From positions 15,858-79,857 of the IMG/VR virus record IMGVR_UViG_3300034102_001457: a DNA stretch of 64,000 nt; one strand, written 5' to 3'. This stretch comes from a virus. Below, piece after piece: positions 11,601 through 56,334 of this stretch (positions within the stretch are counted from its first letter, which is position 1; each line of letters starts with the position of its first letter). The notes under the pieces were generated by a model, which searched no databases, was not told the DNA's origin, and saw nothing but the letters and a program-made list of their open reading frames with translations. The translations under genes and the position numbers were made by a program.

Positions 11601-12246
11601 AACAAGCAATACAATTCAGTACACGATACCATTTGGAACTACAATTCCAACAAGTATTGTTACCCCTCAAGGATCCGCTTCACAGAGCTTTGGTTCTTCA
11701 GCAATTGCAAGACCACTTCTTTCAATCAGAATTGCTCCTTCAGCAGATAATGGAATTGGAAGAAATTACGGTAAGAGAGAAACTCTTAACACTATGCAGC
11801 TAGCACTAAGTTCGCTTGGTATTCTTGCTCAGGGAGCATTCTTGATTCAGGGTATATATAACCCATCAGCTTTCCCTACTGGAGTAAACCTTCCAGGCGA
11901 TTGGGAAACTATTAGAATCCCTGGTGGATCTCTAGCACAGGTTATCTACCATGATAATACTGGTAGAACAGGTTCTACTGTAACCAACCCTATAACAACA
12001 ATCAGAGGTGGAGATCAGGCGTTTGCTTTCTACACCGACGGTACTGGTGGTACAAACTACTCAGCTACAACATTTGATTTGTCAAAGGTTAAGGATCTTG
12101 GAACATCAATTCTTTCTGGTGATGGAAACTTTAAAGCACCAGGATTCCCAAATGGTCCAGATATTTTAACAATCGTCGCAACAAACCTAGGATTAACATC
12201 TGGAGATATTTCAGCCCGTTTATCTTGGACAGAAGCTCAGGCATAA
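8686..12246 (+). CDS. Large virion structural protein with repeated beta-barrel (FCCH-like) modules
   Basis: Repeats TITTSTAHGL, TVRTIQDHGM, TVTTAAPHQL, RVTTQGSHNF; RQTRRHFRYQSGK, IDYTWYGAG. Confidence 0.65.
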   Translation: MSRRQIEHAYYVFKPELDQIIIPRIVRQDRLMLITNTTQGKVIYNFSDPNLTAISFSVDNEVGYEPKTIITLKYNCASMAATDQLAIIVDEPAETVTFTEPLMDAVNKLRVAPPQSLMDTDFEYGIQSSKWEALVLTSNYPSFFSRATGGNSFDVVSVTGDGAAPRSTVTVVVSSPATELVAGDVVSLQDTKNPLAEGTFPVETVSADGFTFTYLASGIVSGSISDGSLTSVTGGGIFDNAHIPGGNDSLGLQGWSANSDGAAQSTITITTSTAHGLLPGTPILIGSQNANCSIKGSWRIFNVSSPNQMKFKMDSQVSNPIVTNGVGLYAKPNGYVQHRPHDGGVILSTTDNVCGVRVIRQTRRHFRYQSGKSIQFSTGVKFTPTFDVDQISVAGVLIGNQVVTVRTIQDHGMQPGAKIKVDGVQTAGTYNPWNGKFTVTNVLGTNEFQYIMPITQNLTATDQFPGGVDVTITVYKWEGAATRTGMYNDQNGFFLEYDGTYLYAVRRFSKKDLFGKIAATKFSNTITGINTRFRKQLLVGDQIVIKGANYTVIEIASDTNMKVSPAYKGDSLTNSSYVITQEIRVPQTEWNVDKLDGKGPSGYTLDPALMQMAYIDYTWYGAGFIRFGFRGTEGNIVYCHKMPNNNRNTEAYMRSGNLPARYEAINSPFFSTKLKAGSSGIVGSPLSPTMIVMYVDSVKFWPDQGFLVIKDDTNFEICSYTITNREYNAIAQGYPVNINRRQPMTSYLQGQAVQLSGSSSNATYLPDNTITNGTGTAQVSVQTITNTCAPVISHWGSSVIMDGKFDDDKNFIFTAGMQRFVNVAGSGEVIAKIASKSATSGVATVTTAAPHQLQVGYPIRISDVNTSASITSIVRTSASTIRVTTQGSHNFVQDQNVTISNSVLSRNLQNGQIQTTAIVGVLNGIRTISAVPSSNQFDVILAGVYGYTAQPQTNSSAVESSTFNGTFTVSAVTSNTIQYTIPFGTTIPTSIVTPQGSASQSFGSSAIARPLLSIRIAPSADNGIGRNYGKRETLNTMQLALSSLGILAQGAFLIQGIYNPSAFPTGVNLPGDWETIRIPGGSLAQVIYHDNTGRTGSTVTNPITTIRGGDQAFAFYTDGTGGTNYSATTFDLSKVKDLGTSILSGDGNFKAPGFPNGPDILTIVATNLGLTSGDISARLSWTEAQA

Positions 12247-12258
12247 AAGGAGTATAAA

Positions 12259-14910
12259 ATGGCAGTATCAGATGTCCCAATAATTGGCACGGCTACCAAA
12301 ACTGGATCGACAACAGCAACAGTAGCATTTGCGGCACCACTTAATGATGGTGGCTCTACAATTACTAACTATACTGCCTTATCAACTCCTGGCAGTATAA
12401 CTGCATCATCGGCAACATCTCCAATTACAGTCACAGGATTAAACCCTGGAACAGAATATACTTTTACTGTAACGGCTACAAATGGAGATGGCGTATCTGG
12501 TCCTTCTGCTCCAAGTAATAGCATTACAACAGATGCTGTTGTTCCTGATGCTCCAACTGTTGGAACAGCTACAAAAACTGGAACAACAACTGCAACTTTA
12601 GCATTTCTCCCACCAACTTCTAATGGTGGTAGGCCAGTTACTAGTTATACAGTAACTTCTCTTCCTGGTAGCATTACAGCTACTGGAACATCTTCTCCAG
12701 TTTCAATTACGGGACTGACTTCAGGAACACAATATACATTTACGGTAACAGCTACAAACTCTATTGGTACCTCTAGCCCCTCACAGGCAAGTAATGCTGT
12801 AACTACAGATTACGTAAATCCTAACAGCCCAGGTGCACCAACAATTGGAACTGCTGCAAAGACTGGTTCAACAACAGCAAATGTTCCATTCACAGCGCCA
12901 GCATCAGATGGCGGATATGCAATTACTACATACACTGCCATATCAACTCCTGGTGGTATTACTGGAACACTTTCTCAAGCAGGCAGCGGAACAGTTCCCG
13001 TTACTGGACTAACCCCTGGAACAGATTATACATTCGTAGTATTTGCAACAAACTCACAAGGCGCTGGTAGTAACTCATCTGCAAGTAATACAATTACAAC
13101 AGATGCAGCAGCACCTAGCGCCCCTTTAAATCCTGTAGCTACTAAATTAAGCTCAACAACTGCAAGAGTTACGTTTAATGAGCCAGCTACAAGCAATGGA
13201 GCAGCAGTAACTACTTACACAGTTACATCAACTCCTGGAAATGTCACTGCCACTGGATCAGGATCTCCTATTACAGTTACAGGACTAACTGCTGCAACAG
13301 CCTATTCATTTACAGTAACAGCTACAAACTCCGCTGGCACATCTGTTGCCTCAGCGCCAAGTAATCAGATTGTTTCAGATGCCACAGTTCCTGGAGTACC
13401 AACTGTTGGTACAGCAGTAAAGCTAACATCAACATCAGCACGGATTCCATTTACGCCACCAGCTTCAAATGGTGGAGCAGCAATTTCTAACTACACAGTT
13501 ACATCAACTCCTGGCAACATCGTTGCCTCATCAACAACATCACCTATTACTATTACAGGATTAACTCCTGCGACATCATACACATTTACCGTAAAGGCAA
13601 CTAACTTTGTTGGAGACGGAAACGCTTCCGCTTCAAGTAACAGCATAACAACAGACGCAGCAGACGTATTTGCACCAGATGCCCCAACAATAGGAACAGC
13701 AACAAAAACAGGATCTACAACAGCAACTGCTGCGTTTACTGCTCCAGCTTCAAATGGTGGCGCAGCAATCATTGGATACATTGGTACATCAACCCCTGGT
13801 GGCATTATTGCTTCATCAACAACATCGCCAATGACTTTCACAGGATTAACTCCTGCTACACACTATACATTTAAGGTAAGAGCAGTTAACTCTGTTGGCA
13901 CTGGACCTGAATCAGCTGCAAGTAATATTGTAAATACAGACAGTGCTCCTCCTGGACCACCAACTGTTGGAATTGCTTCAAAAACTGGAGCAACAACTGC
14001 AGTACTTGCATTTACTCCACCAACCGTAACTAACGGTCAGACAATTACTGGATACACTGTTTCATCAACCCCAATCGGTGGATCAGGTGCAGGAGCCACA
14101 TCCCCAATACTTGTGACAGGTCTTACTCCAGCAACAGCCTACACCTTTAAGGTTAGAGCGATTACAAGCTCTTCTGAGGGTGAGCAATCAAATTCAAGTA
14201 ATATTATTACAACTGACTTTGGAAGCTCAGCTAACTACGCTACATTGTCAAATCAAATTGAGACAATCAAGACAAAAATTAATGCTTTAACATCTACAAA
14301 CTTAAATGCAGAGCAGATTTTGTATGTGTCAAAGTCTTTAGTTACTTTATCTGAGGCACTAGGCGTAGAAGATGTTGTTGAAGCCACCGCAAATGCAATT
14401 GAAAGAATTGATGATGCTGGAGCGGCAGCAATTACGCTTGTTAGCGGAACAGCTAATGGGGCAGCAGTTGCAAATCTAAGCAATAAGTATACTGCACTAC
14501 AGGCAACATATGACAATATTAATCCTAGAGTAACCTCTCTTGAAGGAGTGATTACAAATCAAGAATCAAATATTGCATCAGCATCAGCCCTAGCAGTAAG
14601 CGCTGGATATAATCCATGGCAAATTTTAACAGCTAACAAGCTTCTAGTAAATAGAGATAGAGTTTTTGTTAACACACCAGCACTTGGCGGTGGAGTAGGT
14701 GGATTAACATTAACACTTCCAGCAGGACCTGCAATAGGACATGTTGTAGAGATAGTAGATATTTCTGGAAATGCATCAACAAACTTCTTTACTATAGCTA
14801 GAAATGGCGAAAGAATTCAAGGAGTAGAGGAAGACCTTATCTTCAACGTAAACAATAAGGCTATGAAATTAATATATTCAAATACTGCAAAAGGATGGAG
14901 AATCGCATAA
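12259..14910 (+). CDS. Fibronectin type III repeat protein (7 Fn3) with coiled coil and C-terminal adaptor-like domain
   Basis: Seven units of PxAPTxGTAxK...F.PP..NGG..IT.YT.TS.PG...GLT..T.YTF.V.A.N. Confidence 0.9.
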   Translation: MAVSDVPIIGTATKTGSTTATVAFAAPLNDGGSTITNYTALSTPGSITASSATSPITVTGLNPGTEYTFTVTATNGDGVSGPSAPSNSITTDAVVPDAPTVGTATKTGTTTATLAFLPPTSNGGRPVTSYTVTSLPGSITATGTSSPVSITGLTSGTQYTFTVTATNSIGTSSPSQASNAVTTDYVNPNSPGAPTIGTAAKTGSTTANVPFTAPASDGGYAITTYTAISTPGGITGTLSQAGSGTVPVTGLTPGTDYTFVVFATNSQGAGSNSSASNTITTDAAAPSAPLNPVATKLSSTTARVTFNEPATSNGAAVTTYTVTSTPGNVTATGSGSPITVTGLTAATAYSFTVTATNSAGTSVASAPSNQIVSDATVPGVPTVGTAVKLTSTSARIPFTPPASNGGAAISNYTVTSTPGNIVASSTTSPITITGLTPATSYTFTVKATNFVGDGNASASSNSITTDAADVFAPDAPTIGTATKTGSTTATAAFTAPASNGGAAIIGYIGTSTPGGIIASSTTSPMTFTGLTPATHYTFKVRAVNSVGTGPESAASNIVNTDSAPPGPPTVGIASKTGATTAVLAFTPPTVTNGQTITGYTVSSTPIGGSGAGATSPILVTGLTPATAYTFKVRAITSSSEGEQSNSSNIITTDFGSSANYATLSNQIETIKTKINALTSTNLNAEQILYVSKSLVTLSEALGVEDVVEATANAIERIDDAGAAAITLVSGTANGAAVANLSNKYTALQATYDNINPRVTSLEGVITNQESNIASASALAVSAGYNPWQILTANKLLVNRDRVFVNTPALGGGVGGLTLTLPAGPAIGHVVEIVDISGNASTNFFTIARNGERIQGVEEDLIFNVNNKAMKLIYSNTAKGWRIA

Positions 14911-25920: not shown

Positions 25921-27219
25921 ATGAACATTGAAAAATCCTTATGGTCTTCCAATGGCGATCAGATAGTTTTATCGGTCCCATTTACAAAAGTCAACCGTGA
26001 AAAGCGTACTGTCTCGGGCTTTGCAACACTAGACAACGTTGATCAGACAGGTGACGTAGTTACCATGGAAGCAAGCATTAAAGCTTTTGAAAATTTCCGT
26101 GGAAACATTCGTGAGATGCACAGCTCAAACGCAGTAGGCAAAATGATTTCATTTAAGCCAGAAACATACTATGATGCAAAGTCACAAGAATTTTACAACG
26201 GAGTTTATGTAGATGCATATGTTTCAAAAGGCGCTCAGGATACCTGGGAAAAAGTTCTAGACGGAACACTAACAGGATTTTCAATCGGCGGAAAGATCAT
26301 TGAATCAGACAACGAAGTTAACAAGTCAACTGGCAAGACTACAAGATTTATCAAAGATTACTCATTGATGGAACTTTCAATTGTCGACTCTCCAGCAAAC
26401 GAACTTTGCAACATCTTGTCTATATCTAAGATGAATGGCGAACTAATATTTAAAGGAATAGCAACTGAGGTTAAAGCAGAAAACATTTTTTATTGTGCAG
26501 ACTCAGACTCAGTATTTATTTCAACAGAAGCATCATACGATTCCCCAGTTACAGGAAAACCTGCAACACTAATTGGATGGGTAGAGTCAAACGATGTTAA
26601 CAAAGCAAAAGAAATAAACAAGATTCTTGATTTACATAAAAAATCAAGATTGTCCACGCCTGAAACACAAATTGCAAAACAGGCAGACATAGAAGGAGGT
26701 AATGAAGTGTCAGAGAATACAGAAAACACAACAGTCGAAGAGACTGTAGTAGCAGAAGCACCAGTTGTTGCTGAAGAAGCACCAGCAGTTGAAGAAGCAC
26801 CAGTAGAAGACGCTCCTGCCGAAACTCTAGAAAAAGCAGCCGATGTATCAGAAGTTATGGTTGATGAACCTGATTTTGCTAAAATGCTTGGCGACCTTAA
26901 GGGATTTTTCTCAGAGACATTGAATAAAGCTACAGAAGCAAATGCAGTACAGGTTTCAACAATTAAAGATACAGTTGAAGCGTTCAGCAAGAGCGTAGAT
27001 AGCCGAATTTCAGAGTTGGCAGAACAACACACAGCACTCTCAACTGCTGTTGAAAATATCAAGAACACGATTGATGGTGTACAGAAGCGTGTCGATGCAG
27101 TAGAATCAGAGACTGCAATTAAGAAGTCCTCTGACCTTGGCGGGTCTCAGGAAGTAATGATCAAAAAATCAAAGTGGAACGGTTCTTTCCTTGGTTCCGT
27201 GAACGAAATTTTTAACTAA
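25921..27219 (+). CDS. HK97-type prohead protease fused to a scaffold domain
   Basis: VSGFAT...DQTGD, REMH, TGFSIGG, ELSIVDSPAN; acidic and coiled-coil C-terminal half. Confidence 0.9.
   Translation: MNIEKSLWSSNGDQIVLSVPFTKVNREKRTVSGFATLDNVDQTGDVVTMEASIKAFENFRGNIREMHSSNAVGKMISFKPETYYDAKSQEFYNGVYVDAYVSKGAQDTWEKVLDGTLTGFSIGGKIIESDNEVNKSTGKTTRFIKDYSLMELSIVDSPANELCNILSISKMNGELIFKGIATEVKAENIFYCADSDSVFISTEASYDSPVTGKPATLIGWVESNDVNKAKEINKILDLHKKSRLSTPETQIAKQADIEGGNEVSENTENTTVEETVVAEAPVVAEEAPAVEEAPVEDAPAETLEKAADVSEVMVDEPDFAKMLGDLKGFFSETLNKATEANAVQVSTIKDTVEAFSKSVDSRISELAEQHTALSTAVENIKNTIDGVQKRVDAVESETAIKKSSDLGGSQEVMIKKSKWNGSFLGSVNEIFN
26707..27219 (+). CDS. Putative internally initiated scaffolding protein (170 aa)
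   Basis: AAGGAGGT at 26693-26700, 6 nt before an in-frame GTG at the start of the acidic region. Confidence 0.6.
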   Translation: MSENTENTTVEETVVAEAPVVAEEAPAVEEAPVEDAPAETLEKAADVSEVMVDEPDFAKMLGDLKGFFSETLNKATEANAVQVSTIKDTVEAFSKSVDSRISELAEQHTALSTAVENIKNTIDGVQKRVDAVESETAIKKSSDLGGSQEVMIKKSKWNGSFLGSVNEIFN

Positions 27220-32463: not shown

Positions 32464-32796
32464 TTGGCAACAACAGTATATAGCGTAGAAGAGGTACAGC
32501 TTCAAAACGGTCAGACCGTAAAGCTAAAGCCACTATCAATAGCAGAGCTTCGTAAGTTTATGCTAGCAGTTAAGAGAACAGCAGAATCAGAAACAGAAGA
32601 TGAGACCCTAAACATCTTGATCGATGCCTGTGCAATTGCAATAGAAAGACAACTTCCAGAACTAGTAGCAGATAGAGAAGCATTTGAGAACGCCTTAGAT
32701 GTTCCAACTATGAATCGCATCCTAGAAGTTTGCGGAGGGATTAAGCTTGACGACCCAAACCTACTAGCGGCAGCGGTTCTGGCTGGTCAGAACTAG
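32464..32796 (+). CDS. Tail assembly chaperone (gpG-like)
   Basis: TTG start after AGGAGG; lies between major tail and tape measure. Confidence 0.85.
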   Translation: MATTVYSVEEVQLQNGQTVKLKPLSIAELRKFMLAVKRTAESETEDETLNILIDACAIAIERQLPELVADREAFENALDVPTMNRILEVCGGIKLDDPNLLAAAVLAGQN

Positions 32797-33125
32797 ACTT
32801 AGCCGCTTTAGAGGGGGAAGTTTTTTTACTAGGACATTGGAAGAATTACCAGGAACTAGAAGAAAATCTTTCAATGCCAGAACTTGTAAATACTTTAAAG
32901 GCTTTAAAGAAAAAGGATTACGACAGTAAAAAGTTTCAGGCTTCTTTAGCTGGAGTAGATATAGGCGAATACGAAGAAGAAAAGAAAACTTCTAGTTTCG
33001 ACGAGATACAGTTGAGAGCTGCAGGCATAACTGCTAGCGCAGACGATGTTGTATCACTTCAAGGAAGATTCGCAGCAGATGCTGGTTTCGGAATTGGAGC
33101 AGGACTAGGATACGTTAAGGAGTAA
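32464..33125 (+). CDS. Tail assembly chaperone, -1 frameshift fusion (gpGT-like)
   Basis: Correctly phased slippery heptamer C CCA AAC at 32754-32760; -1 frame open from 32751 to 33125. Confidence 0.8.
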
Positions 33126-33136
33126 TCTGAATACAA

Positions 33137-36100
33137 ATGGCTGACGAAACAATCAGTACCAAGATAGTCGCTAATGCCGACTTTTCAGGTCTTATCGCCG
33201 ATGTGCATAAGGTTACAGCCAGCCTATCAAAACTTCAGGAAAAATTAGCTAGCTCTAATAAGATGATGGCAAATCAAATTGCCGTCATGAACAGATCATT
33301 TTCTGACACACTAAGAAGTACAGGTCAGTTCTCCACACACTTTGTAAGTTTAACTTCAGATGTAGAAAAGTTTGGAAAAAATCTAGATAGCGGAAAGTTA
33401 AAGTTAAATCAATACTTTAATGCTTTTAGAGATCAGACTAAAACATCTGGTGGTCTTATTAGAGATCTAGCAAAACAACAGGTAGCATTACAAAACTCAG
33501 TTCTTCAGCCACTTGGAAGAAATGCACAAGGTCTTATGCAGTTCAATGTTCAGGTTCCAAGAGGACTTGATACAGTAAAGAACGCTGCAGCGCTAGCAAG
33601 AACAGAACTTCAAATTATGAATAAGGTTGTCCAGGATGGTGCTGGTCAGATTATTAACTTTGGTAAAAATACTCAGTGGACAGGTCGTCAGTTAACAGTC
33701 GGACTTACCGTACCGCTAGTAGCATTTGGCAACGCCGCTGCAAAAGCTTTTAGAGAAGCAGATCAAGAATTAGTAAGATTAACAAAGGTTTACGGTGATG
33801 TTGCAGGAACTTCTGCAGTAGAGCTTGGCAAAGTAAGAGATGATGTTGTTCAGACATCAAAAGAAATTTCACAGGCTATGGGAGTTTCCTTTAAAGAAAC
33901 AATTGCATTAGCGGCAGATATTGCAGCAACTGGAAAAACTGGAGACGATCTTTTAGGATCAGTAAGGGAAACAACCAGGCTAGCAGTGCTTGGTGAAGTA
34001 GACCGTCAAGAAGCAATGAAAGCAACACTCGCTATTCAATCAGCTTTTAAGCAAAATACAGATGAGCTTTCAGAATCTATTAACTTCCTTAACGCAGTTG
34101 AAAACCAAACTTCAACAACTCTAAATGACCTCGTAGAAGCTATTCCAAAAGCAGGTCCAGTTATTCAAGGATTGGGAGGAAGCGTACAAGACTTAGCTCT
34201 TTACTTAACTGCTATGCGTGAAGGTGGCATTAATGCATCAGAAGGTGCAAACGCATTAAAGTCAGCACTAGCGTCTTTGATTAACCCAACAGATGTAGCT
34301 GTTAAAAAGTTTCAAGGACTCGGCATAGATTTACTCGGTGTAGTAAATAACAATGCTGGAAATCTTACTGGCACACTAATGGCATTACAAGGAGCTTTAG
34401 ATAGTTTAGATCCACTGCAGAAGCAGCAAGCGATTGAACAACTATTTGGAAAGTTTCAATTTTCAAGACTAAATGCTCTTTTTGAAAACTTAGGAAGACA
34501 AGGAAGTCAGACCTTACAGGTTTTGGATTTAATGAATCAGTCTACTGCAGGATTAGCTCAGGTGGCTGATCGAGAATTAACAGCAGTAACAGAGTCAGCA
34601 TCTGGTAAATATAGAAGAGCTCTAGAAGGGCTAAAGGCTTCTCTAGCCGAAGTAGGAGAACAATTTTTACAAATTAATACTGTTTTAATTACAGTAATAG
34701 ATAAGATAGTTCAGTTTGCTATGAACTTGCCTGGCCCAGTTAAGCAGATACTAGCCCTACTTGGTGGAGTTACAGCAATAGCTGGCCCACTTATTATGTT
34801 AACTGGTCTTCTTGCAAACTTCTTTGGTAACATGGCAAAGGGTGTATTCCATATAAAGGCTTTCCTAAAAGGTGGAGAAGGCTTTAAATATTTAACCCCA
34901 GAAATGCTAGCAGCGGAAAAAGCTGGCAAGCTAGTAGAACAATCTTTTTATAGTGATGCTAAAGCAGCAGCAGTACTACAACAAGCGCTAAGAAATTTAT
35001 TAGATGAATTCTCTCTACTAGAAGCAAAGGCAAAATCTGGATCAATAGCTGTAAATCCAGCAGTCAGCACAATGGCTGGGAATCTTGTTATGGCAAGCGG
35101 AAGAGTTGTTAACCCAGCACATCCTCTAGTTGGCGCAATGGGATCTCGTGCAAGCACTCATATGGTTCCTAGATCTGGAATGACAGAGACTGAAAGACTT
35201 CAGCAAACAATATTTGGAATGGTTCCAGGATCAATCCCAGTAAATCAAAAAATTGGTCAAAACCCTCAAATATATATGAATGATAATTTGCCAGATGTTC
35301 CTGGACTTACTAAAATAGGTGGAACATCAACTGGAATTGTTGCAGGCGAAGCTGCAAAGCACCACGCAATGATGGCAACACTTGCAATGCAATCTAAAGC
35401 AGAAATAGACGAGCTTAAGAAGCAAATGGTTGCAACTGGATTATTAAGTAAAGACTTTATGAATCAATTTGATGACATATTGCCAATTGTTTCAAAGCTA
35501 ACAGATAACGCTGCAAGAGAGTCTGCGCTAATTGTTTCTGAATTACGTGCAGGTAAACTAAACGTTGAGCAAGCTAGAGCAAAAATTATAGCATTAAATC
35601 TAGAAACTGAAAGAATGATTTCTTCATCCATGCAGGCTCATGCAGTTTCAATGGGAAGAACTATAAACCCAACAATGGTTCCTACATTAAACCAGCCTGT
35701 AGTAGATGCTACTGGCAAATCTAATATGAGAGAGCTATTCAAAAAAGGAAAGACTAGAGACTTTATTAATAAAGTAGCTGGAGCCCTAGGAGTGAGAACT
35801 TCAGGAGCAGGATATAATATTGAAACAACAGTTCCAAAAAGATTAAATAGAGGAAACATTGTTCCAGGAACTGGCAATACAGATACAGTTCCAGCAATGC
35901 TTACCCCAGGAGAATTTGTTGTAAATAAAGAAGCAACCGCAGAAAATCTTCCTTTATTGCATGCAATCAATCAAGGCAACTTCGGAGGATCGGTATCTTC
36001 TGAAACTAGAAATTATGGTCCTATAAATCCAGCTCTTATGGCAAGTGTTGGAAAGATGTTTTCTAGAACTGGAAGTTTTGCTAGAAGATGGTTCTGGGAT

Positions 36101-39100
36101 ACAAGCACAGGATCAAGCCTTGCTGGACAAAGAAGTTCTTTAATTAGATCTATTTCTAAAAGACCTATTTTAAATAGAAATGGAGTTCCTTACACAGAAG
36201 CAGAATTAAGAAAAGCGCCAAAAGAAGAAATACAATCCTTATGGGCTAATTATGATAGAGGTCACGTAGCCCCACACAGATCAATCAGCGGAAGCGACAG
36301 TTACTTTGCGCCAGGAATACTCATGCCTATGTTTAGGGGCTCTAATAGATCTATGATTAGCGGTGGAGATCCTGTAGCAATTGCAAAAAGTTTAGAAACC
36401 CAATCAATTCATCCAACAGTATTTTTAGATGAAGCGGCAGAAGCATTTGGATATACGGCTGGTGCAAGAACAGATGCTGCTTATAATGCACTTGTAAAAG
36501 CTTTATATGGCAGAGGTAATAAAAAGTTTGATCCAAAGTCTGGGGACTCTTTTGAAAAATTTGCATTTGACACAATCTCTCCATTTTTAAAAAATATTAA
36601 AAACGGTAGTGGCGCAAATCTTCTAGATGATCTTTCAAGAATTGGAACATTAAGAGGAACTCAATCTAATAGATCTTCTACTGGATCTGGAATAGGTTCT
36701 ATAGGACCGTATGCAATTGCAGATGATTACTTTAATCTTAAAATGAATTCTGGTGGAATGGTTCCAGGTTACAACGCAGGCGGAGTTATAGGAAATGTAT
36801 TAAAGAGCACTGCATTTAAAAACCTAGGAGCAAAATTTGGTAAGATAGGAGATAGTTGGGGAGCCACTTCTCTATCTCTTGGCATGGGAAAGAAATTATT
36901 TGGAAGTTCAGGGCTTACTCCTAAAGCACAAAACTTAATGTATGGAAAGCTCATCAGCAATCTTGAAAAAGAAAGACCGTATGGATATGTGACAAATGCT
37001 CAAGGACATCTTCAAAGAGCTTTAGAGCCAGATATTGTAGACATACTTCTTAAATCATCAGCTAGCGATGTACTTAGTTCGGGCGGGAAAAGCTTAAGTA
37101 AAATTGATAGAGAAATATTGCGAACTAAATATGCAAACTGGGACTCAAAATCATGGACTCCATCAACGTCTAAAATAAGAAAACAAATGTTTGGAATGAA
37201 CAAGGGTGGAATGGTGCCAGGAGTTCAATACCTTAATGAAGGCGGAATGGTACAGGGCACCCAATATCTGGAAGATGGAGGAGAAGTTGCTCCCCGTAGA
37301 GGTGGAATGATAAGAGGTCTAATTGCTGGATCAGCAGTTGGCCTAGGCGGACAAATGCTTGGATCAAAGGTTGGCGGACCAATTGGAACTGCTATACAAA
37401 TAGCATCTATGATTGCAAGCATGGGAATGGGCTTTGGCGCAGGCGGAGGTACAAAAGGTGGCGGGATGGTATCTAGACAAATGGATAAAATTCCTACTCA
37501 GTTAAAGCAACCAATAGGTCCATTAAATGGATTGGCACAGGCAGCAGCAAAAACTGGAGGAAGTCTTTCAGGAATACTAAGAGTATTTGGTCCGCTTCTT
37601 AAGGGATTCTCAACATTACTTAAGTTAACTAGTCCTTTAGGATTAGCAATTACTGGACTGACCGCAGGCATAGGTTTATTTGTTAAGATAAAAAGAGAAC
37701 AAGCAAAGGCTTTAGAGACAGGAAGACTTGCATACGGTATGGATGCAGAGGCTGCTGAAAAGGCAGGCTTTAAATATACTGACTATAACGCTAAAATTAA
37801 AACAGCCATTGAAGATGCAAAAGCATTAAAAGAAAAAAATATAATGGTTTATGAAAGCATGACAAGAGCTAACGTTCCAATGACTATGACAATTGAGCAA
37901 TACAAAAAGCTTAAGGAACAAGTAAAGTCAACAATGGGAAGCTATATAGATCTATTTAGCCAAACAGATAGAAAAGATGTTGGCACAGTAGCTGTTCAAT
38001 TAAAGGCACAGTTTATGGCAGCAGGAGATTCTGCAGAAACTGCTACAGCTAAAATATTTACAATGATTAAGCAGTCTGAAAATGCTAACATGGCTGCACA
38101 GGCAATTAGCACTAATGCCTTCCAAAGCATTCAAAATATGGAGCAGGCTTCGGCACAGACAGTAAAAACTTTTGAGGCTGCAATGAAAACTGGAGATGCT
38201 GAATCGCAAGCCAGAGCATTGCACAGTGTATTCCAAGCAATGGATGCAAGCCTACAGTCAACTGTCGATGAGCAAAAGAAGTTGGGAGATACTGGAGAAG
38301 ATACTGCAAATAGAGTTGCTTCAGCGGTTGAAAATAAGTTAAATAAAATCAACCAGCTATTTGGCACTCAGGCAAATCTATCTGAGGATGTTATTAACGA
38401 AATAGGAAAGACAGACCCACTTTTGGCTGAGATGCTCAATGACACAGATACACTAAATAGCGCATGGGCTAAGTATAGATTAACTATTAGCGGAGTTGCT
38501 ATGAATTTCCAATTCATGAGTGGCGAAGCAGCAATTGCCGCAAATCAATTAAATGAAATAGTAAAGGCCCAGGTTCAGCTTAATCCTGCTGTTGTAGCCG
38601 CAAACAAAACATATAAGGGCATGACTGATGAGATTGCAAGACTTGAAAAAGCCCAAAAGGGACAATCTGTAAAAGCTCAATATAATGCTAAAGAAGAAAC
38701 CGATAGATTACAAAAACAAATTGCAGCAATTAAAAAAGCTGCTCAAGATAAAATTGAAGGAATTCGCAAAGCAACTGATGCAGAAAATACTCAGTTAGAA
38801 ATTCAGAAGGCTCAGCTAAGAGCTCAACAGCAATTAATCCAAGGCAATATGTCTGCATATGCTGAAGAGCAAATGACTATTGAGCAGTTAATGAATGAGT
38901 CTAATCGTAAAGATGCAGAGGAAGCAATTCTTGCTAAGGCCGACATTGACATTAAGCCTCTTCAGGATAAGCTAGATGCTATGGCAGACAAGCAAGAAGC
39001 CATGGCCAAGAAGGCGGCTCTTGCTGGGGAAAGCCTAACTGGACTAAGATCTAAAGCTGATACATATAATTCTGGATTAACAGAGTACACAACTAATCTT

Positions 39101-39940
39101 AATAACCTAATGCTAAAGCTCCAGATAGAGGGAGATAAGTTTAAGATGACTGATGAGTTTAAGACAACCATGACTGCCCTTGAAAAGCTAGGAACATCTT
39201 TAGGCATAAAGACCACACCTCAACAAGTATTAGATCAAATTGGTGCAGCACTTTCTAAAAATCAAATTTTAGCACAAGAGGTTAATATATTAACTGGTAA
39301 GATTAGAGATGGAAGCATAACTGGATCTGGAACATTTAAAGACCCATTTAGCTTAGGTGCACAAGGCATTGGAACCAAGGGAGATATTCAGGGTGCAAGC
39401 CTTAAGAATTATGGAAACGTATTAAAAGACTTTGGTGAAATAGGAATTAGCCAGAAGCTTAAGAACTTTGCTTACAAGCAAGGCTTAGTAATGGGAGATT
39501 ATTTTTCAGCAGAAGACGAAAAGGGACTTGTTTCTGTGTTTAAGGTAAAAGATGAAGACGGAAATATTGAAAGAGTAAAAAATCCTTATGTAAAGAAATG
39601 GGGCGGCGGACCAGTAGTTAAAGGACAAACATATGCTACAAATGATAAGCTTAATGCTCTAGGATATCAGCAAGAAGGCTTTATACCGTTTACTCCACAA
39701 GTGAGTGGAACTATTTATCCAAATATTGCCACTATGCCGAGATACGATATTGGCTCTAATACTAAAATGACTGGGGTTAATATTAGCAATAGCCCAAGCA
39801 GCAACAACGTTTATAATATTGATATAGCGCTAAATGGTACAACCGTTACTGCAGAAGATGTAATGCGTAGCTTTAAGAGAGAGCTTGCGTTAGTCAATGC
39901 AAAAGAAGGAATTGACAGAAGATTTGGAGGAAGCCACTAA
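33137..39940 (+). CDS. Tape measure protein with internal cargo segments
   Basis: TP901-like core (LTVGLTVPL, LAVLGEVD, AGPV, EGANALKS), hydrophobic segments, DTVPAMLTPGEFVV motif, coiled coils; longest gene after the chaperone. Confidence 0.92.
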   Translation: MADETISTKIVANADFSGLIADVHKVTASLSKLQEKLASSNKMMANQIAVMNRSFSDTLRSTGQFSTHFVSLTSDVEKFGKNLDSGKLKLNQYFNAFRDQTKTSGGLIRDLAKQQVALQNSVLQPLGRNAQGLMQFNVQVPRGLDTVKNAAALARTELQIMNKVVQDGAGQIINFGKNTQWTGRQLTVGLTVPLVAFGNAAAKAFREADQELVRLTKVYGDVAGTSAVELGKVRDDVVQTSKEISQAMGVSFKETIALAADIAATGKTGDDLLGSVRETTRLAVLGEVDRQEAMKATLAIQSAFKQNTDELSESINFLNAVENQTSTTLNDLVEAIPKAGPVIQGLGGSVQDLALYLTAMREGGINASEGANALKSALASLINPTDVAVKKFQGLGIDLLGVVNNNAGNLTGTLMALQGALDSLDPLQKQQAIEQLFGKFQFSRLNALFENLGRQGSQTLQVLDLMNQSTAGLAQVADRELTAVTESASGKYRRALEGLKASLAEVGEQFLQINTVLITVIDKIVQFAMNLPGPVKQILALLGGVTAIAGPLIMLTGLLANFFGNMAKGVFHIKAFLKGGEGFKYLTPEMLAAEKAGKLVEQSFYSDAKAAAVLQQALRNLLDEFSLLEAKAKSGSIAVNPAVSTMAGNLVMASGRVVNPAHPLVGAMGSRASTHMVPRSGMTETERLQQTIFGMVPGSIPVNQKIGQNPQIYMNDNLPDVPGLTKIGGTSTGIVAGEAAKHHAMMATLAMQSKAEIDELKKQMVATGLLSKDFMNQFDDILPIVSKLTDNAARESALIVSELRAGKLNVEQARAKIIALNLETERMISSSMQAHAVSMGRTINPTMVPTLNQPVVDATGKSNMRELFKKGKTRDFINKVAGALGVRTSGAGYNIETTVPKRLNRGNIVPGTGNTDTVPAMLTPGEFVVNKEATAENLPLLHAINQGNFGGSVSSETRNYGPINPALMASVGKMFSRTGSFARRWFWDTSTGSSLAGQRSSLIRSISKRPILNRNGVPYTEAELRKAPKEEIQSLWANYDRGHVAPHRSISGSDSYFAPGILMPMFRGSNRSMISGGDPVAIAKSLETQSIHPTVFLDEAAEAFGYTAGARTDAAYNALVKALYGRGNKKFDPKSGDSFEKFAFDTISPFLKNIKNGSGANLLDDLSRIGTLRGTQSNRSSTGSGIGSIGPYAIADDYFNLKMNSGGMVPGYNAGGVIGNVLKSTAFKNLGAKFGKIGDSWGATSLSLGMGKKLFGSSGLTPKAQNLMYGKLISNLEKERPYGYVTNAQGHLQRALEPDIVDILLKSSASDVLSSGGKSLSKIDREILRTKYANWDSKSWTPSTSKIRKQMFGMNKGGMVPGVQYLNEGGMVQGTQYLEDGGEVAPRRGGMIRGLIAGSAVGLGGQMLGSKVGGPIGTAIQIASMIASMGMGFGAGGGTKGGGMVSRQMDKIPTQLKQPIGPLNGLAQAAAKTGGSLSGILRVFGPLLKGFSTLLKLTSPLGLAITGLTAGIGLFVKIKREQAKALETGRLAYGMDAEAAEKAGFKYTDYNAKIKTAIEDAKALKEKNIMVYESMTRANVPMTMTIEQYKKLKEQVKSTMGSYIDLFSQTDRKDVGTVAVQLKAQFMAAGDSAETATAKIFTMIKQSENANMAAQAISTNAFQSIQNMEQASAQTVKTFEAAMKTGDAESQARALHSVFQAMDASLQSTVDEQKKLGDTGEDTANRVASAVENKLNKINQLFGTQANLSEDVINEIGKTDPLLAEMLNDTDTLNSAWAKYRLTISGVAMNFQFMSGEAAIAANQLNEIVKAQVQLNPAVVAANKTYKGMTDEIARLEKAQKGQSVKAQYNAKEETDRLQKQIAAIKKAAQDKIEGIRKATDAENTQLEIQKAQLRAQQQLIQGNMSAYAEEQMTIEQLMNESNRKDAEEAILAKADIDIKPLQDKLDAMADKQEAMAKKAALAGESLTGLRSKADTYNSGLTEYTTNLNNLMLKLQIEGDKFKMTDEFKTTMTALEKLGTSLGIKTTPQQVLDQIGAALSKNQILAQEVNILTGKIRDGSITGSGTFKDPFSLGAQGIGTKGDIQGASLKNYGNVLKDFGEIGISQKLKNFAYKQGLVMGDYFSAEDEKGLVSVFKVKDEDGNIERVKNPYVKKWGGGPVVKGQTYATNDKLNALGYQQEGFIPFTPQVSGTIYPNIATMPRYDIGSNTKMTGVNISNSPSSNNVYNIDIALNGTTVTAEDVMRSFKRELALVNAKEGIDRRFGGSH

Positions 39941-40443
39941 TGCCTATGATTTTACCTAGAGGTTCGGTTTTGAGTATAGAGGCAAAAGACCTTCTAGCAA
40001 CTCCAGAAGGAACTACTAAAATTTGGAATAAGATTACTGAGCACAACAGATCAGACATTGGCATGTCCATAGAAAGAATTGAAAAGGTTGTAAGAACTTC
40101 TAACGGAACTTTAAGAAAGAACTATATTGCAGACAAAAGAAGGTTCTCTATGTCTTGGACAATGCTTCCATCTTATCGCACATTAACAGTTGACGGTGCA
40201 TGGGGAGCAGAAGATTTAAGATCATTCTATTTAAGCGATGACGGCAAAAAAGAATTTAATATAAGACTTAACCTGGCAAAGGGTGGGGCAGATACATCTT
40301 CTTCAGGTGCCCTATATACGCCAAACATGGCAAAGACATCATCAGAGCTTTATACGGTGGTATTTGGAGGCTGTAATTTTTCAGTTGTAAAACGTGGTCT
40401 ACAGCCACACTGGAATGTTTCTATTGAACTGGAAGAGGTATAA
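39940..40443 (+). CDS. Distal/minor tail protein
   Basis: Follows TMP; RTSNGTLRK...KRRFSMSWTMLP...WNVSIELEEV. Confidence 0.7.
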   Translation: MPMILPRGSVLSIEAKDLLATPEGTTKIWNKITEHNRSDIGMSIERIEKVVRTSNGTLRKNYIADKRRFSMSWTMLPSYRTLTVDGAWGAEDLRSFYLSDDGKKEFNIRLNLAKGGADTSSSGALYTPNMAKTSSELYTVVFGGCNFSVVKRGLQPHWNVSIELEEV

Positions 40444-43400
40444 TGATTTCGTCTCCTGCAGTTAAAACATTAATAGAAGAAAATACTACAATCCAAACTA
40501 ATATTGGTTGTACAATTGAATATAATATGAATTCAATGGTAGACAATATTTCAGTTGTTGGAACTGATTATGTTAGAGCAGATGGGGCCAAGCCTTATCA
40601 AAAGCTATTTCCAGCATCTTCTGTTGTCAAGGCTTTCAGACCACTTGGGGCTGGAATCAAGTACGGTGTATTTGGAGACGTAGCTCTTAATACGTGGAAA
40701 GATCCTAAAAAGGTAGAGTACCCTTTAAACTTTAGAACTTATTACCCTGGGCTAGATACATACTATAAATACTGGCTATCTCAAAAAGGCGTTGGGGCGA
40801 ACATAGAGATTACATATAATGGACAAACAATACTAACGAATAAAATTGTTGTTAGATTTGAGATATCTCATTCTATTCCTGCAACATGGTCTGTGTATAA
40901 ACAGGGCAACAGTCTTCTTGCAGAAGGAACAAGCGCTGCAATAAAGCCTTTCCCAACTGGTTCTGCAAAGAGCTATGATGCTGGAACATTAACTCTTTAT
41001 TATAACGGAACGGCATGGGTAACCACAGAGCCTGCTACTATATCCGCACCAGTATCTATTACAGGATTAAAGCTAGTAACGCCAGGTGTTACTAATGCTC
41101 ACATAGGAGTAATTGAAGTTTCTCCTAGATGGGTTGCCGATATAACAGATCACATTGTTGGATTTAGCACAAGCCAAGAATCTTCTACTAGTGCAGATGA
41201 TATTCTTCCAGTTGGAAAAGTTTCTGCAAATTCATTATCTCTTGACTTAGTTTCATATGAAGCAGCCAGAAAAATTATTACTTATGATAAGGGTACTGCC
41301 TTTAGTTCTTCTAACCTATACATGTATAAGTCCGCAGAATTAAAACCATACATAAAGGTATATTATTCAGGAGCACCCTATACTGATTCAAAGGGTGCTT
41401 ACGAGAAGGTAAAGCAAGGAACATACTATATTGATAACTGGAGCACCTCAGAGTTTGGAGATATTTCTTTAGACGCACTTGATGGAGCAAAGTTTCTTCA
41501 AGACATTTCCTGCCCTGGAATGGTTTCTAAAGATACTACTGCAGTAGGAATTATTAGAAGACTCTTGGACAACGTTGGATTTACAAACTATAACATAAAC
41601 TATAAAACAGATTCTGCTGGAAAAATAACAGACACCTCTATCCTCAGCCCGTTCTATTGGTGGACAGACGACGGAGAAACTGTATGGAATGCTATTCAGG
41701 AATTATGTAGAGATTCTCAAATGGTAGCGACATTTGATGAAAATAATGTTCTGCAATTTTACACAAGAGACTATTTGTTTTCGAGAACAGATGCTCATTG
41801 GAATTTTAAATATTCAAAAGATGGCAACATCCTTCCTAATATTATTTCTTTTGAAAAGAAAGATTTGCCAGCAGTTAATCAGGTAAAAGTTTTATGGAGC
41901 CCAGTAACATCTAGTCAGCTTATTGGAGACGGACAGCCTCTATGGAAGTCTGGATCTGCATACCTAGGCGCATATTCTTTATCAACAGATATTCCCGCTA
42001 GCACAAGCGGAGGCGGAGCTGGAACGGAAATTAGCCTAGTCCCTATAACAGTCAATCAAGACCTTAAGCAAATCATATATAACTTCGCTGGCTACTTGGT
42101 TATAGATTCTGAAATCATAGAGTATGATGCAATTGAATATCAATACATAAATACTACACTGGGTAGAACAAAGGCATGGATAACTCAGATATCTGATTTG
42201 CAAAAAATAGCTAATGACATAACTACTACCATTGCAGCAAATAAAGCAATTGGGCAAACTGGAAAGATTAGGATCAAATCTAGAGGAGCGTTTGGGACAA
42301 GTGCTGTAGCTCATGCAAAAACTGGCTCAGTTACTGGATGGACTGGATTTGATAATACATTTAGAACTAGTTCTGAAAATACGCAAGGGTCAAGCACTCC
42401 TTCAAGCATTTCTCAGGTTACTGCCACAATTCCAGACATAAATATTACTCCTTCAGAATCAGAAGAGGTAGAAGTATCTCCAGTTAAATTAATTCAAAAA
42501 TCTTTATTCCAGATAACATCTAGCGGGTCGGCTGACAAACAAAATAAATATTCTGTTTCTGTAAAAGATATGGAAATAGCAGATACTGGAAACTTCTATA
42601 ATTTTGGAACAGGTTTATTTTTTAAAGGGGCTAAAAACGATACAAAGGGATCTGGCGGTATAGGATTTTTTACAAGCTCAAATGGACTTGATGGATATTA
42701 TGTTAAATTAGAAACAACAAGTAATCTTCCAGAAAGTGGATCAGATAGGCCTTTATCTATTTTTAAAGTAAAAAATGGAGTAATCACTCCTCTAAAAGAT
42801 ACTCAAGAAAAGGGAAGCAATAAATCTCTAGCCTATTTAGCTCAGGGAGTTTCTTATAAGGTTGATATTCGTGTAAAAGTTGAAAGTTCAATTGTTGCAA
42901 TAGATGTTTTTATTAATAACTTTAAGGTAACAGCAGTTGACTCAGCAGATATAATTTCTCCAACAAGTAACGTGGCCCTATTCTCAAATGCCAACTCAAC
43001 ATTTTTTGATTATGTTTATTCTATTCCTCTTAACGAAACTCAATACAAGGACGGAGTAATTGGAAACCAATACTCTGGAAGATTTGGGTCCACAACCCTA
43101 GACTTTTTATATGGGGATAAGCTTTCAAGCGGATTTGATAATAGTGGAATATCTGGGGGAGCCATAGATGAATTTGGAACTGTAGCCAGAGAACTTTTAA
43201 AAGTAAACATTAAATATGATTCTAGACCAGCCTTCCCAATCATCACCAGTCTTGGCTTAAATAAGTTTGTAGAGCTTTTAGGATACAGGTTAAACTCCTT
43301 TGGCGCTGAGGTTTATGTTCTAAATAATGCTGGTACCTTTATTCCGCTAGACGATTCGAAGTTTGCCTCATTTAGCATAATTGGAAATACACTAGTTCAG

Positions 43401-43724
43401 TCTGGTCAAAATGAATACGTTGACAAAACAATAAACGAGTTTACCGTTCCAGAGCAGGTTACATTTGAGTCGGTTTGGATTCAAAAAGAGTCTGATGCCA
43501 AGAGCCTTTCAGACTGGATAAAAGCTCAGTGGTCAAAGAAGCAGTCTGTTTGCGAACTAGAAGTTTTCTCAAACCCCTTGATTTCTGTAGGAGATATTGT
43601 TACAATTAACTATCCAGCCAATGGACTAAATGGCACACAAAAATTTATAGTATCAAATATTAACAATTCATTTGACGGGGGGCTAAGTACCAGAATAACA
43701 ACTAGATCTATTTATAGTTCATAA
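40443..43724 (+). CDS. Minor tail protein (hub-like)
   Basis: 1093 aa; TVWNAIQELCRD, FDENNVLQF, NPLISVGDIVTI. Confidence 0.7.
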   Translation: MISSPAVKTLIEENTTIQTNIGCTIEYNMNSMVDNISVVGTDYVRADGAKPYQKLFPASSVVKAFRPLGAGIKYGVFGDVALNTWKDPKKVEYPLNFRTYYPGLDTYYKYWLSQKGVGANIEITYNGQTILTNKIVVRFEISHSIPATWSVYKQGNSLLAEGTSAAIKPFPTGSAKSYDAGTLTLYYNGTAWVTTEPATISAPVSITGLKLVTPGVTNAHIGVIEVSPRWVADITDHIVGFSTSQESSTSADDILPVGKVSANSLSLDLVSYEAARKIITYDKGTAFSSSNLYMYKSAELKPYIKVYYSGAPYTDSKGAYEKVKQGTYYIDNWSTSEFGDISLDALDGAKFLQDISCPGMVSKDTTAVGIIRRLLDNVGFTNYNINYKTDSAGKITDTSILSPFYWWTDDGETVWNAIQELCRDSQMVATFDENNVLQFYTRDYLFSRTDAHWNFKYSKDGNILPNIISFEKKDLPAVNQVKVLWSPVTSSQLIGDGQPLWKSGSAYLGAYSLSTDIPASTSGGGAGTEISLVPITVNQDLKQIIYNFAGYLVIDSEIIEYDAIEYQYINTTLGRTKAWITQISDLQKIANDITTTIAANKAIGQTGKIRIKSRGAFGTSAVAHAKTGSVTGWTGFDNTFRTSSENTQGSSTPSSISQVTATIPDINITPSESEEVEVSPVKLIQKSLFQITSSGSADKQNKYSVSVKDMEIADTGNFYNFGTGLFFKGAKNDTKGSGGIGFFTSSNGLDGYYVKLETTSNLPESGSDRPLSIFKVKNGVITPLKDTQEKGSNKSLAYLAQGVSYKVDIRVKVESSIVAIDVFINNFKVTAVDSADIISPTSNVALFSNANSTFFDYVYSIPLNETQYKDGVIGNQYSGRFGSTTLDFLYGDKLSSGFDNSGISGGAIDEFGTVARELLKVNIKYDSRPAFPIITSLGLNKFVELLGYRLNSFGAEVYVLNNAGTFIPLDDSKFASFSIIGNTLVQSGQNEYVDKTINEFTVPEQVTFESVWIQKESDAKSLSDWIKAQWSKKQSVCELEVFSNPLISVGDIVTINYPANGLNGTQKFIVSNINNSFDGGLSTRITTRSIYSS

Positions 43725-54783: not shown

Positions 54784-55093
54784 GCGAGAGTCTTATGTAT
54801 TAATTGGGCTTTACGAAAAGCTGTACCTAGAAAAATATAATAAAAAGCCTAGGATAAATAAGTTTCGTGAAAAGTGGGCTATGCAGGACGTAATAGATAG
54901 CGTTGGCATGGACAGAGCAAAGGAACTTTTGGTATACTACTTCAAGACGACCAAGTCGGGCCACCCTCTTAGTTTCTTTTTCTACAATTTTGACAAGATA
55001 GATTATTTAAAAACAGAGCGTGAAAAGGATGCAAAGCATCGTAGGTTGCTACTACAGGCAACCAAGGAGTTAGTTGAAGGCGGGAATGAATGA
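54773..55093 (+). CDS. Hypothetical protein preceding the helicase
   Basis: 106-aa ORF overlapping both neighbours. Confidence 0.65.
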   Translation: MANERESYVLIGLYEKLYLEKYNKKPRINKFREKWAMQDVIDSVGMDRAKELLVYYFKTTKSGHPLSFFFYNFDKIDYLKTEREKDAKHRRLLLQATKELVEGGNE

Positions 55094-56334
55094 ATACAGA
55101 AGCCGAGTTGATCTCAGCAGTATGTAAGAACAAAGACATCAGTACCCTGCTCGCAGATAATGTAGATGAGATCTTTACTTCGCATAAAGATATTTGGGAT
55201 TCGTTAAAAGCCTATTACTATAAGTTCAAAGCAGTGCCAGAAGCTGGAATCCTTATGGAAAGATTCAAGGACTTTGAGCCAGTAGATACAAAGGCAGAGA
55301 CTGGTTACTATTTAGATAAACTAAAGAATGAATACCTAACTGGCAGACTAAAGAGTATTATTATTCAAAGTGGCTCAGCATTAAAAGAAGATGCAGCATC
55401 TAGAGTATTAGGTGACCTGCAGGCTAAGCTATCTCAGCTTTCTAAGTTTACAAATCATGTTCGTGACGTAGACGTAACAGATATTGAATTAGCAGAAAAA
55501 CATTTCCTATCAGTTAAAGAGCGCTCAGCAATCATGGGAGGAGCTCCAGGAATTCTAACAGGCTTTGATGCAATAGACAAGGCATACCCTACTGGTATGG
55601 CTCCAGGACACCTTATAGTGGCCATTGGTTGGCCAGGACGTGGCAAGACATGGTTTACTTCCTATCTTGCCTGTAAGGCATGGGAGCAGGGCTTTAAGCC
55701 TATGATTGTATCTCTTGAAATGTCTCCAGAGAATATGCGTGATCGTATTTATACAATGATGGGTTCAGGATTGTTTCGTGCCTCAGACTTTGCGAGAGGT
55801 GACGTTAACGTAGATACGTTTCGATCATGGGGCCAGAAAAGGTTTGAGAATAAAAACGGATTTATCCTGGTATCTAACGAAGGCATGGGAGAAGTAAACG
55901 CTAATACTATTCAGGCTAAGATAGATCAACATAAACCAGACTTAGTTATTTTAGATTACCATCAACTGTTTTCTGATAATAAGCGTAGCACAGGTGCCAC
56001 AGAGCGTAACATGAACGTGTCTCGTGAGTTTAAGATGCTTGCTATGACAAACAATATTCCAGTTATTGATATTACCGCAGCAACTATGGACGACATTACA
56101 GATCAAGATGCACCTCCTATGCTTAGCCAAGTTGCTTGGTCTAAGGCTATTGAGTATGATGCAGATATGGCCATAGCTATTCATAAGTATACTGATACCA
56201 ACATGATTGAGGTTGTGAGCAGAAAGAACCGCCACGGAATGGAGTTTAATGTCTTTTTAGATTGGGATATCAATAGAGGTATCATCAAAGAAATTTATGA
56301 GAATCCTTTTGCAAATGACGCATCGAAGAATTAA
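55090..56334 (+). CDS. dnaB: Replicative DNA helicase, DnaB-like
   Basis: Walker A GWPGRGKT, SLEMS, LVILDY, IEYDAD, KNRHG. Confidence 0.93.
   Translation: MNTEAELISAVCKNKDISTLLADNVDEIFTSHKDIWDSLKAYYYKFKAVPEAGILMERFKDFEPVDTKAETGYYLDKLKNEYLTGRLKSIIIQSGSALKEDAASRVLGDLQAKLSQLSKFTNHVRDVDVTDIELAEKHFLSVKERSAIMGGAPGILTGFDAIDKAYPTGMAPGHLIVAIGWPGRGKTWFTSYLACKAWEQGFKPMIVSLEMSPENMRDRIYTMMGSGLFRASDFARGDVNVDTFRSWGQKRFENKNGFILVSNEGMGEVNANTIQAKIDQHKPDLVILDYHQLFSDNKRSTGATERNMNVSREFKMLAMTNNIPVIDITAATMDDITDQDAPPMLSQVAWSKAIEYDADMAIAIHKYTDTNMIEVVSRKNRHGMEFNVFLDWDINRGIIKEIYENPFANDASKN

Follow-up and report, generated by a model that had tools for sequence, protein, structure and literature searches.

A viral tape measure protein carries folded inserts between conserved glycine-rich joints that probably serve as sites of insert exchange

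In this study, we analyzed a 64,000-nucleotide stretch of viral DNA (IMG/VR record IMGVR_UViG_3300034102_001457, positions 15,858 to 79,857), hereafter called the window, with a focus on its gene for a tape measure protein (TMP; P0001). The middle part of this protein holds two inserts, each bounded by short glycine-rich motifs that we call joints, and homology to related TMPs breaks off at these joints. Phages with differing inserts have kept the joints in both protein and DNA, so that the joints can be taken as the places of insert exchange. We consider it probable (about 70%) that the TMP is a carrier of cassettes, that recombination swaps, adds or deletes the folded inserts at the joints, and that the inserts are probably delivered via the tail.

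By its sequence matches, the product of the gene at 33137-39940 is a TP901-family tape measure protein. The Pfam domain PF10145 (PhageMin_Tail) matched with E 4.9e-31 (108.6 bits versus a cut-off of 33.2), and 12 PHROG families annotated as tail length tape measure protein (best 7.3e-119) also matched, confined to approximately the first 900 amino acids (aa). The joints follow behind this part (Table 1). LNRGNIVPG (aa 903-911, from nucleotide (nt) 35843) and NFGGSV (aa 948-953) stand at the two ends of a first joint module, a tandem of two motifs follows at aa 1203-1219, and four further copies (MNKGGMVPG, LNEGGMVQG, LEDGGEV, and RRGGMI) are clustered at aa 1354-1392 (from nt 37196). Compared with 5000 shuffles of the TMP protein, N-x-GG-x-V-x-G was observed three times instead of the expected 0.01 times, and [NEDR]-x-GG-[MIVE]-[VI] six times instead of 0.09 times, with all six occurrences inside aa 880-1400. 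The looser pattern h-x-x-GG-x-[VILM] (h, hydrophobic residue) was also found six times, with 1.56 expected (P = 0.004). Among 31 TMPs with 36-89% identity to P0001, the glycine pairs 1215-1216 and 1357-1358 as well as N1355 are invariant. The motifs were thus all found at the positions listed in an earlier, model-made reading of the sequence (the original prediction). Also, the two discrete blocks that it had described between the motifs, one of ~250 aa with the motif DRGH and one of ~135 aa and basic, were recovered as block A (~250 aa, isoelectric point (pI) 9.7, DRGH at aa 1040-1043) and block B (134 aa, pI 10.0). Its additional motif near the C-terminus, KWGGGPV, is present at aa 2154-2160, a position at which relatives have a second joint copy, but in P0001 this copy is degenerate and the joint profile described below did not detect it.

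For the analysis of breakpoints, aa 880-1480 were used as query, thereby retrieving more than 1200 related metagenomic TMPs, many of which match just a part of this region at high identity. The full TMP was aligned to 64 relatives, and a residue was counted as a breakpoint if identity in the 25 residues before it and in the 25 residues after it differed by 0.5 or more. Over the 2267 aa, the three top breakpoints are located after aa 947 (32 of the 64 relatives), aa 1210 (43 of 64), and aa 1363 (29 of 64), i.e. between HAINQG and NFGGSV, between MNSGGMVP and GYNAGG, and between MNKGGMVPGV and QYLNEGG, all inside GG clusters. The next-highest peaks, at aa 34, 689, and 1530, were seen in 10-17 relatives. 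By rough estimate, the GG clusters with margins of 5 aa make up ~4% of the protein and ~16% of aa 880-1480, and the chance of three independent breakpoints falling into them is ~7e-5, or 4e-3 within aa 880-1480. The same was observed on the DNA level by blastn against 40 related IMG/VR loci: homology stops at aa 937-956, restarts at aa 1199-1218 (35 loci), and stops again at aa 1360-1374 (33 loci); the stop is within a few codons of the joints at 38 of the 40 loci. The coincidence of homology breakpoints with the GG motifs, which had been proposed as a test of the motifs being joints, was thus observed in both protein and DNA.

The segment between the breakpoints after aa 947 and 1210, here called slot A, is the most variable one. 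Most relatives carry in it sequence unrelated to block A; their slot A sequences form 10 clusters of 217-330 aa, with 630-720 aa in giant relatives. After trimming of the motif-bearing ends, the cores of at least six clusters have no mutual BLASTP similarity at E < 0.01, so that a variable module with at least six unrelated families is exchanged behind a conserved joint. The ends of the slot are alike: every type closes with GG-x-[VI] (mostly h-N-x-GG-x-V) just before block B, and most types open with h-x-x-GG-x-V directly behind the joint. A clear case of recent replacement in slot A is the P0005 type (loci L004/L005), with DNA 88% identical up to aa 956 and a block B protein 97% identical, while the block A proteins share 32% and no DNA match was found. 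A search of 1.84 billion proteins with block A yielded five representative matches only, four of which are long tape-measure-like proteins or fragments starting inside the joint. The block A-type fragments P0123 and P0124 (P0060 looks alike) begin at the internal methionine of the joint and are most likely truncated gene calls rather than stand-alone genes. In the fifth match (P0125, 1766 aa), seven separate stretches match aa 144-201 of the block A query (approximately aa 1098-1155 of the TMP), and no joint was found; a sub-part of block A may thus recur as a repeat in another kind of protein.

Block B is subject to presence and absence. It is found in most relatives at 80-97% identity and is missing in P0009-P0021 and P0025, where block A is followed by three tandem GG joints and then directly by the Gly-rich hydrophobic segment. 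At three of the four loci without block B, DNA homology extends to aa 1210 and restarts at aa 1387; at the fourth (L008), it restarts at aa 1456. In the window, block B is flanked by two copies of a 27-nt direct repeat, which are 453 nt apart and in frame, and recombination between them would lead to the in-frame loss of block B. The junction in relatives lacking block B is a tandem GG array that is related, not identical, to the joints of P0001. Judged from the sequence, such short DNA repeats encoding the joints would offer a simple mechanism of exchange. A search for stand-alone homologues of block B with a length of 75-242 aa gave no hit. With breakpoints in the clusters, replacement in slot A, and a deletable block B, the proposal that the motifs are recombination joints and the blocks are exchangeable is well supported.

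Apparent mosaics can arise when a long, repetitive protein evolves at very uneven rates or when open reading frames (ORFs) are split or misassembled, a caveat raised for TMPs by Smug et al. 2023 (PMC10684548), whose survey was unable to confirm a genuine recent mosaic TMP owing to coiled-coil repeats and split ORFs. As a full explanation without any exchange, this is hardly tenable for the TMPs compared here. The slot A types lack detectable similarity while their flanks are 80-99% identical, the presence or absence of block B is clean with fused joints at the deletion, and DNA homology stops abruptly at the joints in nearly all loci as given above. Furthermore, the inserts are not coiled-coil repeats, and all TMPs compared at the loci examined are single open frames of 2096-2289 aa. 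Rate variation alone as source of the mosaic was rejected on the basis of the unrelated slot A types, the DNA breakpoints, and the presence/absence pattern of block B.

No other part of the region is as well conserved as the first joint module (aa 903-953), most positions of which have 85-99% column identity among the 64 relatives, and the block after it varies. For a joint profile, 166 distinct copies were used. A second joint copy near the C-terminus is found in many relatives, and giant relatives (3100-4100 aa) have three to six copies, each with other sequence behind it. In the giants P0066, P0068, P0081, P0084, P0105, and P0122, the copies are mostly 130-1000 aa apart, and the last one is located near the C-terminus. 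At loci L009-L037, synonymous third-position identity is 52-81% in the joint (35831-35977) compared with 47-54% in the N-terminal 890 aa, with ~30 codons per locus and loci that are not independent. Within the limits of these small, non-independent samples, the higher value in the joint is consistent with homogenisation of joint DNA by recombination.

Structure predictions with AlphaFold2 (AF2) separate the joints from the inserts. The model of block A has a mainly helical core with a predicted local distance difference test (pLDDT) score of 70-90 (aa 989-1040 and 1061-1168), and scores below 50 were obtained for the DRGH loop and the initial 35 residues of block A as well as for the joint and the C-terminal joints. 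The joint at aa 903-953 has a pLDDT of ~30. For block B, a 31-row alignment resulted in a pLDDT of ~83-94 over aa ~1217-1354, with ~30 in both flanking joint clusters. In the monomer prediction, the joints thus appear as unstructured linkers between folded units.

The joint is also present in a TMP with a studied insert. With the joint profile, aa 701-750 of phage TM4 gp17 were matched with 54.5 bits (E 2e-16), and tblastn against the whole phage collection gave E 4e-4. Both proteins share G-x-G-x-x-D-x-x-x-A, GEF[VI], and NLPLL-x-AIN, and in both the joint is followed by a GG motif (RFAGGGL in TM4) and then by an embedded domain that is not part of the ruler; in gp17, the joint is directly upstream of the motif Mt3. 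In the TM4 locus (L044), the joint homologue and the GG motif cover aa 698-766 just before Mt3, and further GG sites (KGGKPKGG, aa 886-893) lie after Mt3. Mt3, located around W853, has peptidoglycan-hydrolysing potential and aids the infection of stationary-phase cells (Piuri & Hatfull 2006, PMC1796659). Its deletion leads to viable phage with a shorter tail and poorer infection of stationary-phase cells, and processing of gp17 is suspected only (PMC1796659). In contrast to P0001, where blocks A and B belong to no known family, TM4 has as its insert a known hydrolase motif that is related to host proteins. Also, gp17 was presented in terms of a motif embedded in a TMP rather than of cassettes and conserved joints. 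Since Mt3 is the nearest tested case, an accessory role in envelope penetration would be suggested for the inserts rather than a toxin role.

From these observations, the following picture is proposed. The TMP consists of the ordinary parts of such a protein (an N-terminal half of the TP901 type, a long rod towards the C-terminus, and an end that binds the tip) and, in its middle, of a conserved joint module with two folded inserts behind it. Both inserts are fenced by short joints of the type h-N-x-GG-h-V-(P/Q)-G, which are predicted to be unstructured and would allow recombination to replace, add, or delete inserts without breaking the ruler. By analogy to TM4 gp17 and the C-terminal piece of T5 pb2 (pb2C), the inserts most likely would ride in the tail lumen and, as accessory infection factors, be released before the DNA into the envelope of the host. 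The sequences show the architecture, the conservation of the joints, and the breakpoints at the joints, and the comparison with these phages suggests that the inserts are delivered into the host and take part in infection.

Some points weigh against this reading. Retrieval of the relatives with aa 880-1480 as query may inflate the number of breakpoints in this region, not their position, and the loci are not phylogenetically independent, so that the counts overstate the number of recombination events. At several loci, synonymous third-position identity amounted to 57-67% for block B, compared with 48-54% for the N-terminal 890 aa and 34-47% downstream, which fits separate histories of these segments, with the excess in block B being modest at ~65-75 codons per locus. 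Also, conservation of the joints might have a reason other than exchange. Finally, no function or fold can be assigned to the inserts, so that the term accessory infection factor is used by analogy alone.

The joints could in addition be proteolytic sites. The TMP would then be a polyprotein that is cut after assembly into an N-terminal half, free block A, free block B, and a C-terminal half, and the cargo would be released at ejection. This possibility, which we regard as doubtful, is compatible with the exchange of cassettes and adds one step to it. A first parallel is T5 pb2, which is matured into pb2* and pb2C by a cut after R1127 (Linares et al. 2023, PMC10038345). The cut separates a hydrophobic stretch from an enzymatic C-terminal piece, which is kept in the tail tip and released on infection (PMC10038345). 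In the pb2 record, AEGGMMYPG, which resembles xxGGMVPG of the joints, stands two residues past the cut and is one of five GG sites in 1219 aa. However, the joint profile did not detect T5 pb2, so that homology is not established, and the likeness is that of a 6-7 residue motif with a one-residue difference in spacing. Unlike P0001, pb2 has one such site near the C-terminus and not a series in the middle of the protein.

Phage lambda gpH provides a second parallel. It is matured into gpH* and gpHC by a cut in a Gly-rich region, the exact site of which is unmapped (PMC12617516). The joint profile has a weak similarity to aa 754-782 of gpH (10.9 bits; best of 3000 shuffles 3.3 bits), a segment that falls in gpHC, and by eye the elements of the joint follow each other in the same order in the region ~731-785 (ATGGFTGTGG, GEFVFTKEAT, and YATGGYVG). 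In contrast to P0001, gpH has a single copy near the C-terminus and no insert behind it. For cutting also speak that the joints, being predicted as unstructured, would be accessible and that their residues are invariant far beyond the needs of a flexible linker. Against it, support for cutting in this phage and its relatives comes from analogy only, and no TMP protease is known for T5 or lambda. None is evident beside the TMP gene either, the sole protease match in the window being the prohead protease at 25921-27219. Moreover, the cuts in T5 and lambda free a C-terminal piece, whereas cutting at the mid-protein joints would leave the ruler in four pieces. A more far-reaching version appears distinctly improbable to us: the siphovirus TMPs of this widespread family would be delivery polyproteins cut at the T5-like motif after assembly, lineage-specific free proteins of unknown families (blocks A and B in P0001) would be injected ahead of the DNA, and the joints would double as recombination sites for the trade of payloads, making these TMPs the phage-tail counterpart of polymorphic toxins.

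Alternatively, the joints could be structural hinges for packing in the lumen or binding sites for chaperones or the tail tube, and the blocks would be length or spacer modules or surfaces for the escape from sensors instead of enzymes or effectors. Such a role would agree with the strong conservation of the joints without any sign of catalytic residues, with blocks that lack a recognisable enzyme family or fold, and with the length of 217-330 aa kept by unrelated slot A types, as expected under a constraint on tail length or packing. TMPs are reportedly discussed in one paper among the phage proteins targeted by bacterial sensors, which we take as a lead only. We nevertheless judge hinges or spacers unlikely. 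In TM4, the domain behind the homologous joint has demonstrated peptidoglycan-hydrolysing potential and a measurable effect on infection. In addition, the invariant His, Asn, and Arg residues of block A at 28-83% identity suggest a specific function, as does the well-folded block B, which is kept at 80-97% identity.

The search for the nature of the inserts under the preferred cassette reading gave mainly negative results. No Pfam match was found for blocks A and B at E up to 10, and a sequence search of the PDB with aa 880-1480 gave no match. Fold searches resulted in nothing above background, neither for block A (Foldseek against PDB and VIA-wide; best VIA Z 3.7, Foldseek E above 0.03) nor for block B (PDB, VIA-wide, and BFVD; best VIA Z 4.8, Foldseek E above 0.03), and an ESM Atlas search with block B was uninformative (best score 0.83). 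In the precomputed Pfam annotation of the relatives, PF10145 was the only domain apart from an OmpA-like domain (PF00691), a hint at peptidoglycan binding, in three giant TMPs (P0096, P0110, and P0117). Among 31 block A sequences with 28-83% identity, the invariant residues include H1043 within DRGH, N1070, and a number of Arg, Thr, and Gly positions. DRGH with an Asn ~27 residues further on recalls the pattern of Serratia-type (NucA) non-specific nucleases. A nuclease as reading of block A gained no support from the Pfam search up to E 10, the mainly helical model, or the fold matches, which include no nuclease, and it is kept as a lead only due to the invariance of H1043 and N1070.

In polymorphic toxin systems, relatives exchange a variable module by recombination, and this module is located behind a short conserved motif. 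The TMP resembles these systems in having a variable module exchanged behind a conserved motif. It differs from them in that the module is internal and not C-terminal and that delivery would be by a phage tail. Neither a recognisable toxin domain nor an immunity gene was identified; the gene next downstream of the TMP gene encodes a tail protein, and nothing identifies an immunity partner. In the six frames of the window, no further copy of the joint and no further N-x-GG-x-V-x-G motif were found, which means that orphan cassettes are absent from it. The suggestion in the original prediction that the blocks are effectors as in polymorphic toxin systems therefore has not gained support so far, with no Pfam, PDB, or fold match, no orphan cassettes, and no immunity partner identified.

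Enzyme motifs embedded in TMPs (TM4 and T5) and the cutting of TMPs (T5 and lambda) were already known from individual phages. No account of the GEFV motif in connection with tape measure was found in a literature search, and a search for tape measure protein together with polyprotein returned nothing relevant. The present case provides a clean mosaic of a TMP, in contrast to the survey cited above (PMC10684548), with a joint that is common with TM4 and weakly with lambda and at which folded inserts have demonstrably been replaced or deleted in relatives. Provided that the inserts reach the host, TMPs would be a large untapped reservoir of proteins acting at the first moment of infection. Also, the defined motif makes two old questions testable, namely where and why TMPs are cut and which role a TMP has after measuring the tail. 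The case of P0001 itself is informative on exchange and adds little on function, with both inserts being of unknown family and the phage being uncultured.

Table 1. Features of the TMP gene and its direct neighbours, with positions in the window.
Feature	Position (nt)	Strand	Basis or remark
Two small ORFs upstream of the TMP gene, at the position of tail assembly chaperones	32464-33125	+	PHROG 10504 and 10474 (function unknown); putative role, from gene order alone
TMP gene (P0001)	33137-39940	+	Uninterrupted frame, 2267 aa/codons
PhageMin_Tail (PF10145) core, aa 240-438	33854-34450	+	Pfam match
Transmembrane-like hydrophobic segment, aa 535-567	34739-34837	+	Kyte-Doolittle, 19-aa window, >=1.4
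First joint module, aa 903-953	35843-35995	+	Order of elements: G-x-IVPG, DTVPAMLTPGEFVVNKEAT, NLPLLHAIN, NFGGSV at the end; column conservation 92-99% in the 64 relatives
Block A (slot A), aa 954-1202	35996-36742	+	Between the breakpoints after aa 947 and 1210
27-nt direct repeat, copy 1 (MNSGGMVPG)	36742-36768	+	Top direct repeat of the region
Tandem GG joints MNSGGMVPG-YNAGGVIG, aa 1203-1219	36743-36793	+	Strongest breakpoint; pLDDT 30-40
Block B, aa 1220-1352	36794-37192	+	Compact alpha/beta domain as predicted by AF2
27-nt direct repeat, copy 2 (MNKGGMVPG)	37195-37221	+	81% identical to copy 1
Cluster of four GG joints, aa 1354-1394	37196-37318	+	Breakpoint after aa 1363; pLDDT ~30
Gly-rich hydrophobic segment, aa 1395-1520, with transmembrane-like stretch 1497-1520	37319-37696	+	Composition and hydrophobic window
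Long acidic rod region, aa 1521-2140	37697-39556	+	Composition; diverges among relatives
C-terminal region, aa 2141-2267, including degenerate KWGGGPV (aa 2154-2160)	39557-39937	+	Second joint copy at the equivalent place in relatives
167-aa ORF and 1093-aa minor tail/hub-like protein downstream of the TMP gene	39940-43724	+	PHROG 10359 minor tail protein, 3.1e-78; weak baseplate-hub match

The gene neighbourhood is that of a normal tail module. Upstream of the TMP gene, genes for the portal, a prohead protease, the capsid, and a tail protein with an immunoglobulin-like (Ig) domain are followed by the two small ORFs, and the very long ORF is placed between these chaperone-position ORFs and the distal tail and hub genes. 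Within the TMP, aa 1393-1520 have a Gly content of 22.7% and a grand average of hydropathy (GRAVY) of +0.50. Megablast of the TMP gene against GenBank phages gave no match, and GenBank phage protein matches are restricted to aa 1-685 at ~33% identity, coming from 130-kb Streptomyces phages and from Gordonia phages. The source record comprises 79.9 kb and is estimated to be 63% complete.

Further genes of the window were noted outside the tail module. A 490-aa protein (1344-2816, +) has an N-terminal Mtd_N domain (PF18454, E 2.4e-10) of the major tropism determinant; some phages have diversity-generating retroelements that target Mtd-type proteins. Upstream of the head genes (8686-14910, +), a 1186-aa ORF without Pfam match is followed by an 883-aa protein made up of seven fibronectin type III repeats. 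Genes of DNA replication are represented by a DnaB-like helicase (55090-56334, +) and by a full DnaE-type DNA polymerase III alpha subunit with PHP, core, finger, and HHH domains (58288-61554, +).

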